Origin: Podarcis bocagei
Lineage: Eukaryota
NCBI GenBank assembly: GCA_964188305.1
Contig: OZ076886.1
Direction: 5' to 3' (one strand)
Length of the DNA stretch: 64,000 nt
Of the stretch, positions 14,472 through 40,674 are shown piece by piece (positions within the stretch are counted from its first letter, which is position 1; each line of letters opens with the position of its first letter). The notes beneath the pieces were generated by a model that saw only the letters and a program-made list of their open reading frames with translations, ran no database searches and was not told the origin of the DNA. The translations under genes and the position numbers were made by a program.

Positions 14472-14941
14472 GTAAGTTGTTTTTATAGGAATAATATGAC
14501 CGCTGCTCCAAGTTCTCTAGTTACTAAATGTGAACTGGTACTGTTCTATGGAACTGTGTTGATACTAGTCACACTTTGGCTGTGTGCCCCCCTCCCTGGT
14601 ATAAAGGACCAAATGCAGATCCTGTTTCAAAAATACCTGCAACAACTTTCATGTCTTGCCAACCCCTTCTGTAGAAGATTTGCATTGGTTCGTATTGACT
14701 TACCTTGCAAGCTGCAAGGTAAAGGTAAAGGGACCCCTGACCATTAGGTCCAGTCATGACCGACTCTGGGGTTGCGGTGCTCATCTTGCTTTACTGTCCG
14801 AGGGAGCCGGCATTTGTCCACAGACAGCTTCTGGGTCATGTGGCCAGCATGACGAAGCCACTTCTGGCAAACCAGAGCAGCTCACGGAAACACCGTTTAC
14901 CTTCCCGCCAGAGTAGTACCTATTTATCTACTTGCACTTTG

Positions 14942-16798
14942 TTTTGTTTTTTTAATAAATTTTTATTAGGTTTTCACATTTTACATTGACATCACAAACA
15001 CACAAAGACAAAGACAAACATGCATAGTTTCAAATCCTTGCTTTCTTAACCACATTCTCTGACTTCCCCGCGCCACCCCTTCATACATCCTAATTCCAAT
15101 AGTTGGCTCAGCAAGTTCTTACTTTCATCTTCAAAATATTATTATAGTCCTTTTTTTAACTTAGTTCTTCTTAATTAACCAATTTTAACTTATACATCAA
15201 TTATAATCTTAACATCTTTTCCTAAGGTCGACCTAAGTTCCCTTCCACAAATTTCCCAATTTTAAGTATTAGTTACTAAACACACTAAAGTTAAATATCA
15301 TAAAATTCTCCTCCTTTTGGATTCAGAAGCTCTCACCCTCCCTCTTTCCCAGTTTCGATCCCCAAAAGATGTCCACAATATCAGTTCTTAGCCTGGATTT
15401 CTCACGTCCGAGGCCTTCAAGTCCCCATCAGTCCCTCTCCGCCGATTTTGTTGGTAGTCCTTTATGTTGGTCATCGGGTCTCGAAGGAGCTCTTTCCCAA
15501 TAGGATGCAAGTTTCTTCCAACCAGTCCTCCATATTCCAAAAGGGAGCCCCAATCGTATTTCTTGCTTCTTTTAAGTCCCAGTGTTCCAAATGTCCCAAA
15601 GGCTTCCCCTTTCATCTTGAACAAATTTGCCATCCGTAATTCTTCCAATCCCCCCATAAAGGGATCACTCCCTACTTCATACTCAATTTCAGTCCAAATT
15701 CTCATAATCCAAATCTTATTTTCTTTGTAATCCACAATTTCCTTGTTTTCTTTGTATTCCACAATTGTAGGCTTCTGGTTGGCCCTTTCCACCAGCAATA
15801 TTTCCGCTCCTCCTTCTCTCTCCTCTAGTCCTGAAAATATCTCTTCTGATTCAGCTGCAGAGTTGTTTTTTTGTCAAGTCCTTAACACAGTCAGCAGGAT
15901 TATTTACTTTAGCATTCAAGGTCACAAGTTTTGTAGCCATAGCTGTGTTCTGGTCTTGTAGCATTCCCACGAGAAAGAACATTTTTTCTAACTCTGCTTG
16001 TCATTTTCCATCTGCAGCCATTGTAATGTCTCAGAATCCCCCCTAGAGGGATTCTGGTTACTTAGTATTCCTTCTCCAACAGTCAGTAACTTTATTTATT
16101 TATTTCTTCTTTGTTTCCAACAACTTAAGATCAAATGTAACTCATTCAGTCTCAAAGATAGTAAATAACCGATTTTTCTAGCTTTAAAAGCTCGTTTGAC
16201 AGCTCCTTTGACAGCTGTCAAACTCCTTGCGTCTCCTCAAGAGCCTCACTCACGGATCGCTCCCGGATCCGGGGGGGGGGGTTTCACATCAACTTCTAAA
16301 ATTCCGTTCTCATCCTCCAGCACAAAGCTTCTAATGCCAATCGTGAAATTAATAACTTTTGACTCACGAAGAGATATGTAGTCCACCTTAGTTGTCCAAT
16401 TCTTGCTTTAAGTATCTGCAGAAAGGGGGAGCGGACTTCCTTTTAGCACTCCCCCGATCGTTCCAAATTCACGAAAAAAGAGATTTTTAAATCCAAATTC
16501 CTTACTACTCACGGGTAGTAGTCCGGCCATGGCTCGTGGCTTCACTCCACTGTGAGCAGTCTACTCACAGCACCGCGCCGCTCTCCGCACCCTCTCCAAA
16601 GCCTTTAAAAAGGCTTCTTTGTGGGTTGGGGGGGCTCAAATGGTGCCCGCCGAGTCACCAAGTCCACAGGCTTGCGCGCCTGTGGTTTCTGAGGGTCCCC
16701 GCGTCGCCGCCGCGGCAGGACCCGTCCTCAGTAGAGCCGATTCCCTCCGGAGCTCAGAGGGAATCCGCCATTGACCGATCGCGCTAACCCGGAAGTCC
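14942..16798 (-). mobile_element. 1857-bp non-autonomous L1-type (HAL1-like) retroelement
   Basis: 17-bp TSD tatctacttgcactttg (14925-14941, 16799-16815); 5' end GGACTTCCGG...ATGGCGG with CpG-rich UTR; AATAAA plus A-tail; one decayed ORF, no RT. Confidence 0.8.
15388..16021 (-). pseudogene. decayed ORF (~210 codons), possibly L1 ORF1-derived
   Basis: MAADGK*QAELEKMFFLVGMLQDQNTAMATKLVTLNAKVN..., then a frameshift in an A-run (~15866-15872) into track ORF 15388-15798 ending DVRNPG*. Confidence 0.5.
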
Positions 16799-17337
16799 TA
16801 TCTACTTGCACTTTGATGTTCTTTTGAACTGCTAGGTTGGCAGGAGCAGGGACCGAGCAACGGGAGCTCACCCTGGCACGGGGATTCGAACCGCCGACCT
16901 TCCGATCGGCAAGCCCTAGGTTCTGTGGTTTAACCCACAGTGCCACCCGCGTCTGTAATGCAAGCTGCAAGCTTAGGCTTAATTTCCAGATTTGCCTCTA
17001 AAATGTAACTGCATTCCCAAAACCAATTTAAAAGGCTGTGGTTTGTGTGAATCCTTTAATGTTTGCAGTGTTTAATGAACCACTGGAATCATTGCTGCTT
17101 TTTGGAACGGTGCTGGGGTATAGCAGGGTGGTAGTGAGATCAGGGCAGAGTGGGAACACCTACTGTATGTGGTGACCCTACCAGAGCACTGCACAGCCCC
17201 AACCTCGCTGCCACCCAGCCCTGTCTAGGTTTGCTTGCAGTGATGGCAGTGGAGAAAGGGCAGCACAGACTCCTATGGAATGCTGGGCACTTTGACAAGC
17301 AGCTCTTCTCTGCAACGTCTCTCCAAATCTGTTTCAG

Positions 17338-39221: not shown

Positions 39222-39826
39222 TCAGCTGTAGATCATGAATACTTTGGGTTTGTTGTCAGCCTTGATTTCTGGATTATCCAGCTCTATCAGGATGTTCTTG
39301 TCGTCCTTGACGGCTGGGGCCTCGTCAGCATTTTGAAGGGTTTGTGGCAGGTTCCTCAAACTGATGTCCATATCTTTGAAGGCATGGAGTAAAAAGACCC
39401 CTAAAATAATGGTGAGGAACCCGCAGACTGTCCCAATGATGTCCACCACAGACATGGTGACCCACTCCTTAAAGAGGATGACTGAAGTGGTGATGACAAT
39501 GGTGGTAAACAGCACGTAGTAGATGGGGAAAACCATAGAGGTGTTGAAAATGTCCAGAGCTTTGTTGAGGTAGTTGATTTGGGTGGTGATAGAGGCCACT
39601 AATGTGAGGACAAGAATCCAGGTGAGTGGGTCCTTAAGAACAGGCCAGTGAGCGAAAAAGCCCTTAATGGCAATGCCTAGTCCTTTGACTGAAGATACTG
39701 AGAATGCTCCAATCACAGAACAGATGGTGAGGTAGATGAGAATGTTGGTCTGGCCGTAACGTGGGGCGAGGAAGAAAATCAGAACCAGGCAGACCGCCAA
39801 CAGAATGCTGGCATAAGCAAGGAAAC
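39222..39826 (-). CDS. NIPAL4: NIPAL4 exon 6 (last), [32 protein letters not shown]...KVFMIYS-stop
   Basis: Acceptor tttcattattccag; 605 nt to TGA; NIPA-family multi-TM Mg2+ transporter motifs ([20 protein letters not shown]). Confidence 0.96.
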
Positions 39827-40674
39827 CTGGAATAATGAAAAGAAGGGGGGTGAGGAATTCATCACCAGGTTGCGGCAGTTTTATGAGGAGCAGAGTATAA
39901 GTTGTGGCAAGGCGGTAACACACCACTAACAGGTATAAGGAGTTCAACTGATCAACCAATAGAATCCTAGCTGTAAGAAATGAGAACTATTCCACCTAAA
40001 CAAATGGAACTAGGCGAGGTGAGTCTGCCAAAAGGACTGACACAAAATGCAGAAAATAAGCACACATAAAGGCGGGATCCAGGGAAAGACATGTGCACGA
40101 GCTCTAATTCATGCACCTGCATATGTACTCAGAAGACCTATTTGGACATCTGCCTGAACAAGGTCTTAGAATGGAGGTGGTTCCCTCTCAACGCGGCCCT
40201 CCAGATGTGGCTCCCATCATCCCTGACCCCTGCCACTGCTGGTTGAGTACAACAACACCTAGAGGGCCACAGGTTAACAATTCATAACTTAAAATCATGG
40301 GAGGGCATCATGCGCCCAACATCACTAGGCACACAGGTTCCTCTTTAGACCACTGTGTGTTTTAGTGCAAAGAGTCTGAAGAGGGTTTCAAAGTGAGCTC
40401 TCCACATTTCACTTGCCCTTGCGTGTCCAATTTGGCAATGGGGCATGAGAGATCTGTGAAGGGGGCAATGTTTCCAGGAAACAGCAGCAGCAGTGCAAAG
40501 ACATTTCAGGGGATGGCACTGAACCACAATGCTCACAAATAGGATGACAGCCATACTGGGGATTCAAAACTGAAGTGCCATGCCACTGCCATCCCACTTG
40601 AACAAGGGATTCAGATAATAAGCTACATTTATAGCTGGTTGGTGATACCTTTAACCTTCTGCTTTTCTGGTTAC

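Follow-up and report, generated by a model that had tools for sequence, protein, structure and literature searches.

The window, i.e. the whole 64-kb stretch of DNA analysed, contains a 1857-bp insert on the minus strand, which interrupts a Sauria SINE lying in the same orientation (Table 1). The insert is flanked by exact 17-bp direct repeats. Other SINE copies in which the two halves abut have this 17-mer only once (41 of 41), and the repeat is therefore a true target-site duplication (TSD), as the earlier note on this DNA had proposed. The host SINE has a flanking repeat of its own of 13 bp (14706-14718 and 16959-16971). It was identified as a Sauria SINE from its tail of ACCTTT repeats, which is described for this group (PMC13295347), and from its abundance, with 43,615 exact genome copies of an internal 18-mer, rather than from alignment to a published consensus. 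The window copy differs by 3.6% from the majority sequence of its own subfamily, while the host SINE is ~86% identical to other SINE copies. Together with the nesting, this makes the element younger than its host SINE, which had also been suggested. In four related organisms searched for the empty site, the contigs span the flanks and contain parts of the family, but they break within the SINE. Elsewhere in the window, an open frame on the minus strand (39225-39986) matches the C-terminal region of a magnesium transporter of the NIPA type (PF05653, E 1e-57).

Table 1. Features of the insert and of the interrupted SINE, in window coordinates
Feature	Position	Strand	Basis
Non-autonomous L1 derivative of full length, copy of subfamily A	14942..16798	-	Family alignment, TSD
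5′ UTR with inferred internal promoter, starting GGACTTCCGG	16022..16798	-	Homology to autonomous L1 5′ UTRs
Single ORF of 210 codons, eroded ORF1 derivative	15388..16021	-	Family ORF; stepwise homology
Codons 1-45, heptad helix predicted to be amphipathic; strongest constraint within the ORF	15887..16021	-	Model and omega
Ancestral deletion junction, ORF1 end fused to out-of-frame ORF2 tip (RGTxxDLxASDVRxPG-stop)	15388..15437	-	Sister-family profile, shared motif
3′ UTR	14968..15387	-	Profile against L1 3′ UTRs
AATAAA (14967-14962) and short A-rich tail	14942..14967	-	Sequence
TSD, copy at element 5′ end	16799..16815	.	Exact repeat and SINE comparison
TSD, copy at element 3′ end	14925..14941	.	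Exact repeat and SINE comparison
Host Sauria SINE, 5′ part	16799..16953	-	Comparison with other SINE copies
Host Sauria SINE, 3′ part, terminal ACCTTT repeats	14716..14941	-	SINE copies; PMC13295347

The first ~440-490 nt of the 5′ UTR are homologous to the 5′ UTRs of autonomous L1 elements. The window copy has AATGGCGG in this UTR at 16772-16765 and a private 40-nt deletion near 16516-16521. The CpG-rich 5′ end described previously is evident from an observed/expected CpG ratio of 0.91 in the first 400 nt of the element, compared with 0.17-0.36 at nt 601-1200. Four GTGAGT motifs resembling splice donors are located in the 5′ UTR (window positions 16568, 16512, 16367 and 16253, minus strand), and those at 16568 and 16512 are also present in L1 5′ UTRs. 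At the opposite end, the last ~150-200 nt of the 3′ UTR match L1 3′ UTRs, and the remainder presumably consists of an eroded ORF2 tip and L1 3′ UTR. AATAAA is followed by AATTTATT and 12 A-rich nt, in agreement with the tail reported before.

The ORF of ~210 codons had been described as decayed. This is correct for the window copy, which has a stop at codon 7 (16003-16001) and a frameshift caused by one extra A in the run 15866-15872, but not for the family, in which the ORF is kept open. The claimed absence of endonuclease and reverse transcriptase (RT) agrees with a tblastn search using two L1 ORF2 proteins of the same genome, which gave no match in the 64-kb window. The insert is a dead copy.

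Relatives of the element were searched for in the 1.6-Gb genome. Among the best 40 of 5534 candidates, which were scored, at least 16 near-full-length loci were found at 88-100% identity. Two of them (L009 and L011) have common flanks, so that at least 15 full-length copies, 88-95% identical, are independent. A TSD of 12-21 nt is found at 14 of the 16 close loci, and an open ORF (196-210 aa) in ten. The exact motifs of the 3′ and 5′ ends occur 390 and 120 times in the genome, respectively. The 40 sites retrieved for inspection from these 120 belong to sister subfamilies of 1.8-1.9 kb, 65-95% identical and in some cases split by later insertions; none of the 40 elements contains ORF2, and 26 have an exact TSD of at least 12 nt. 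The family belongs to a radiation of 1.7-2.3-kb elements with a common 5′ UTR and 3′ end. One-off internally deleted L1s do exist in this genome (5 of the 100 elements of the census below), but there is next to no chance that such a deletion, or a processed host mRNA, explains the insert, since its structure is common to many copies with different TSDs of their own and both ends match L1. Many copies of similar length with different TSDs had been suggested as a check on a non-autonomous L1-type family. They are present, lack ORF2 and have ends that are homologous to those of intact L1s in this genome.

Two other genomic settings of subfamily A may be described here. On one contig (G000:C19), a 3′-cut copy whose ORF is open forms part of a unit that recurs at least ten times with ~99% identity (L020-L029), and the unit adjoins sequence which, judged by eye, looks like an LTR retrotransposon. 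At another locus (L003/L121, G000:C12:21127468-21135700), an L1 with both ORFs open is found directly after a subfamily A copy, and was probably inserted into the A-tail of that copy.

Intact L1s with the same start are present in the genome. For example, L122 is 5976 bp long and has an ORF2 matching RVT_1 (E 6e-38) and Exo_endo_phos (E 5e-13). The start of these L1s conforms to the consensus published for lizard clade-1 L1, GACTTCCGGTGN8ATGGCG (PMC5381506). A DNA profile built from 44 family copies matches the first 440-490 nt (E to 1e-85) and the last 150-250 nt (E to 3e-17) of L1. It is important to compare the family with an intermediate one (L129 type, at least 150 copies), which aligns to the family DNA profile along its length (E 2.5e-112). 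The L129-type profile corresponds to ORF1 C-terminal DNA until position 1546 and to the ORF2 tip and 3′ UTR from position 1555 (E 1.6e-27). ORF1 extends as far as the EDLQKG motif; nine bases on, ORF2 sets in with its last ~55 codons, and the 3′ UTR comes after it. The C-terminal ASDxRxPG, which is the ORF2 tip read out of frame, also terminates subfamilies A-M. From these comparisons, endonuclease and RT appear to have been lost in one ancestral deletion, the junction of which is seen in the sister family. The L131 type has a different junction.

In a tree of the 5′ UTRs (69 rows, 14 L1s kept), a group comprising subfamilies A-J and a non-coding type (97/93) is placed next to the L197/L122-like L1s (93/99), with the non-coding type nested inside the group. 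A single clade for all short elements is neither rejected nor demonstrated by this tree (p-AU 0.355). The comparisons do not indicate an origin from mammalian L1: the nearest L1s are of the lizard clade-1 type of the same genome, and the named protein relatives are hypothetical proteins of Podarcis lilfordi.

A wider L1-type start pattern occurs 5699 times in the genome. The first 100 of these starts listed, all within the first 39 Mb of one contig, were classified in a census, which covers intact starts of this L1 clade and leaves out truncated L1s and L1s with other starts. L1s with ORF1 and ORF2 account for 38 of the 100, both ORFs being open in 22, and two more are damaged L1s. Single-ORF relatives of the window element make up 32, with the ORF open in 24; ORF2 coverage is zero in all 32 and, like the window copy, they lack the ORF2 with endonuclease and RT that an autonomous L1 has. 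Seven elements are of the intermediate L129-like type, three of the separate L131-like deletion type, nine of the non-coding 1.7-kb type, five are one-off ORF1-less deletions and four are unclassified. Short non-autonomous elements constitute 51 of the 100 sampled intact L1-type 5′ ends, and extrapolation from this sample gives ~2,900 of them genome-wide. TSDs have a median length of 17 in L1 (n=35) and likewise in the short elements (n=43), and the target in both is a pyrimidine followed by a run of purines.

The nine copies of the non-coding branch (L169, L194, L198, L227, L245, L246, L250, L253 and L263 in G000:C1) are 86-98% identical to one another, have both L1-type ends and TSDs, and contain no ATG ORF longer than 49 codons after nt 700. 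Other short forms were also seen. In L131, L171, L200 and L249 (2.3-2.7 kb, with TSDs), the ORF1 coil continues in frame into an eroded ORF2 segment derived from downstream of the RT. L128, L130 and L132, which are related to the intermediate family, are short derivatives with flanking TSDs and lengths of 2.1, 1.5 and 1.4 kb. The one-off L1s L167, L174, L210, L214 and L216 retain the 5′ end and skip ORF1, the 5′ end in L167 and L210 apparently coming from another family. Splicing was rejected as their origin, the junctions in L174, L210 and L216 having no GT-AG ends. Such ORF1-less L1s could be raw material for new non-autonomous families.

The location of the insert deserves separate consideration. 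Seven independent L1-type 5′ junctions are found at this nick in Sauria SINEs and four at a nick ~10 nt away, and the number at the nick is ~90-fold above uniform expectation, as might be seen for a site-specific element that targets these SINEs. However, the junctions at the nick represent only ~0.12% of the 5699 5′ ends although the site is present in 43,615 copies, and only two of the 100 census elements lie within this SINE. Intact L1s (L122 and L124) are found at the same site, and the other TSDs are unrelated sequences. L122 (G000:C2:54062783, minus strand) is inserted at the same nucleotide of another Sauria SINE with an identical 17-bp TSD and has both ORFs intact. Two of the seven junctions at the nick belong to L1s with ORF2, and for one of the seven no TSD was found. 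Site specificity is therefore highly improbable, and SINE targeting as a rule is refuted by the census. The junctions are explained by the ordinary preference of the endonuclease within an abundant repeat.

The family protein has no match in the PDB and none in Pfam apart from a weak one to SAM_KSR1 (E 0.056). Direct alignment to L1 ORF1p is not significant (hhalign E 0.055 and 0.29), and with a profile of 48 family sequences 36 ORF1 proteins score no better than 216 decoys. However, the homology can be followed stepwise. The family profile matches L129 with E 1.2e-9, and L129 matches L1 ORF1 with E 8e-11 and 1e-9. In the L129 type, the N-terminal ~50 residues of ORF1p and 37 residues of the RRM region are already missing. 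The earlier description of the ORF as ORF1-like thus holds by way of the intermediate family and not by direct similarity, and sequence comparison supports descent of the ORF from ORF1 through this intermediate. Of 1.84 billion representatives searched with the profile, 11 gave a match, all of them family-like. A genome search with PF02994 gave no match anywhere, and it is uninformative because the controls were also unmatched; the intact L1 ORF1s, too, are not matched by Pfam. An L1 ORF1 profile of five sequences matches human ORF1p (2yko) at E 0.003, and one of nine sequences has no match at E 0.01.

A complete ORF1p consists of coil, RRM and CTD. In the family protein only the N-terminal helix is predicted, and similarity to RRM or CTD was not found. 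The AlphaFold model has a mean pLDDT of 48.8, with a helix at residues 2-40 (pLDDT 75-92) and disorder past residue 43. Heptad positions are 83% hydrophobic, compared with 21% elsewhere. In subfamilies E and F, prolines interrupt the helix after about three heptads. A predicted complex of two L1 coils with residues 1-60 scored 0.22, the mark being 0.34.

The ORF is open to the shared stop in nine of ten subfamily majority or single sequences. The fraction of in-frame indels is 15 of 29 in the ORF and 36 of 202 in the UTRs (p=1.6e-4). In a neutral simulation, 6.3 stops arise per lineage, and all ten sequences remained open in none of 1000 runs. The stop simulation and the omega estimates are based on 65 copies, with ORFs picked as intact; the value of omega for the whole ORF in these copies is 0.65, compared with 0.84 for simulated neutral sequences. 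For codons 1-45 it is 0.43 versus 0.90 ± 0.11 (lowest of 25 neutral runs, 0.69), for the middle 104 codons 0.81 versus 0.83 ± 0.06, and for the last 30 codons 0.49 versus 0.74 (lowest of 25 runs, 0.59), a modest constraint. It is important to note that a strand-biased C/T rate alone brings neutral omega down to 0.84, since the sense-strand exchange rates in the UTRs are 9.5 for C/T and 1.9 for A/G, a difference of about fivefold. Our first estimates (0.51 without kappa, and an LRT against omega=1) overstated selection for this reason and are superseded by the simulation. The C/T bias is more marked among changes that are shared than among those of single copies, and it is found in L1s as well, RT error and RNA deamination being candidate causes. 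Codons 1-45 are constrained, and the middle is neutral yet in frame. In the family the open ORF is under selection and is not a product of decay.

The detailed agreement with L1 allows us to propose how the element spread. The insert is a dead copy of a non-autonomous L1 derivative with several subfamilies, to which intact L1s probably lend their ORF2 protein. The TSD length and target preference, which match those of L1, and the common ends suggest that L1 ORF2p mobilises the family. The RNA would be transcribed from the internal promoter of the 5′ UTR and would undergo target-primed reverse transcription by ORF2p borrowed from intact L1s of the same genome.

The role of the ORF protein is less certain. 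By analogy with human ORF1p, and in line with the multimerisation with a helper protein proposed for other non-autonomous LINEs (PMC5786205), the N-terminal helix might pair with the coiled coils of helper ORF1p before the RNA has left the ribosome. The RNA of the element would thereby enter L1 particles, and the remaining part of the protein would serve as a neutral in-frame spacer. Truncated human ORF1p does form coil-dependent heterocomplexes with full ORF1p (PMC5605252). However, truncated ORF1p suppresses retrotransposition in human cells and the coil alone does not (PMC5605252); this result, suppression and not help, counts against pairing with a helper. We give such recruitment a little less than an even chance. 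The ORF would help the element to spread but would not be required, since the nested ORF-less branch (9 of 100 census elements) also spreads and the protein is thus dispensable.

Alternatively, the ORF may be kept for translation itself, with passage of the ribosome and a late stop stabilising the RNA or setting it near new ORF2p. This would be consistent with the neutral but in-frame middle 104 codons, with an ORF length held at 175-210 codons as identity falls to 32-35%, with a model disordered beyond residue 43 and with survival of the ORF-less branch. On the other hand, the amino acid constraint and heptad pattern of codons 1-45 would be unexpected, and synonymous divergence (pS) in these codons, 0.47, is close to the 0.51 of the middle, which argues that the constraint is not mainly on RNA. 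This explanation is possible but seems the less probable of the two. It is more doubtful still that the short protein poisons the trimers of helper ORF1p and dampens L1, the family persisting partly by competing with or restraining it. The N-terminus and coil of human ORF1p suppress L1 in trans (PMC5605252), the outline of the protein is alike here, and intact 5′ ends belong to short elements as often as to L1. However, the ORF lacks the ~50 N-terminal ORF1p residues needed for the human effect (PMC5605252), selection is observed on mobile lineages and not on fixed host loci, and L1 is abundant and intact in this genome. Recruitment through the helix is thus retained as the preferred, though tentative, reading.

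These elements provide a natural deletion series, from full ORF1p through partial loss of the RRM, then a coil with a neutral spacer, to no ORF. The series points to the N-terminal coil, or translation itself, as what the parasite needs from ORF1, and makes this need testable. The reason why HAL1-type elements retain ORF1 is treated as a presumption in the sources cited here (PMC3627910, PMC5786205). For annotation, it is important that about half of the sampled intact L1-type promoters belong to non-autonomous elements of 1.7-2.4 kb and that some family ORFs are listed as 'hypothetical proteins' in wall-lizard annotation. A search of the literature, which covered papers and not repeat libraries, found no description of such a lizard family. 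Lacertid genomes might harbour a long-lived L1 parasite not yet described, which would match L1 in number among intact 5′ ends and would show the whole path from ORF1-coding to ORF-less forms within one genome. Its protein would be a selected N-terminal coil hooking the RNA to helper ORF1p, and one branch would be an ORF-absent L1-derived LINE, a type not listed for the L1 clade in a 2018 survey (PMC5786205). Taken as a whole, this picture is speculative and only possibly correct.

It is useful to compare the family with known systems. The closest L1s, the lizard clade-1 type (here L197/L122-like), have the same GACTTCCGG...ATGGCG start (PMC5381506), a homologous 5′ UTR and 3′ end, and the same TSD length and target preference, but they are ~6 kb long with full ORF1 and ORF2, while the window element has 1.9 kb and no ORF2. 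HeT-A and Ag-Sponge also encode one protein, proposed to multimerise with the protein of a helper, but belong to the insect Jockey and CR1 clades and not to L1 (PMC5786205). The 1.7-kb branch resembles ORF-absent bipartite LINEs such as Bov-A and RIME in having both LINE ends and no long ORF (PMC5786205). The sources of such elements named in the 2018 survey are only RTE, Ingi, Vingi and R2, with no L1 clade (PMC5786205); the lizard branch differs in its derivation from L1 via an ORF-coding stage and is much longer.

The most similar system is mammalian HAL1, an L1 derivative encoding only ORF1p which has several origins in mammals (PMC5753468). Both are derived from L1, without endonuclease and RT, and have one ORF1-derived ORF with lasting coding capacity; in both the promoter end is retained in most copies and origin has been repeated independently (PMC5753468, PMC3627910, PMC5786205, PMC8535693). 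In the lizard the ORF descends from ORF1 via the intermediate, and the family carries the marks of target-primed reverse transcription. However, the lizard family has a squamate host and a separate origin from lizard clade-1 L1, its ORF has no recognisable RRM or CTD and ends in the out-of-frame ORF2 tip, and forms grading from a partial ORF1p down to the absence of any ORF coexist in one genome. Sequence comparison thus indicates a family that works like HAL1 but is not mammalian HAL1 by descent. It stands out by its abundance, by the series of eroded forms and by the branch without an ORF.
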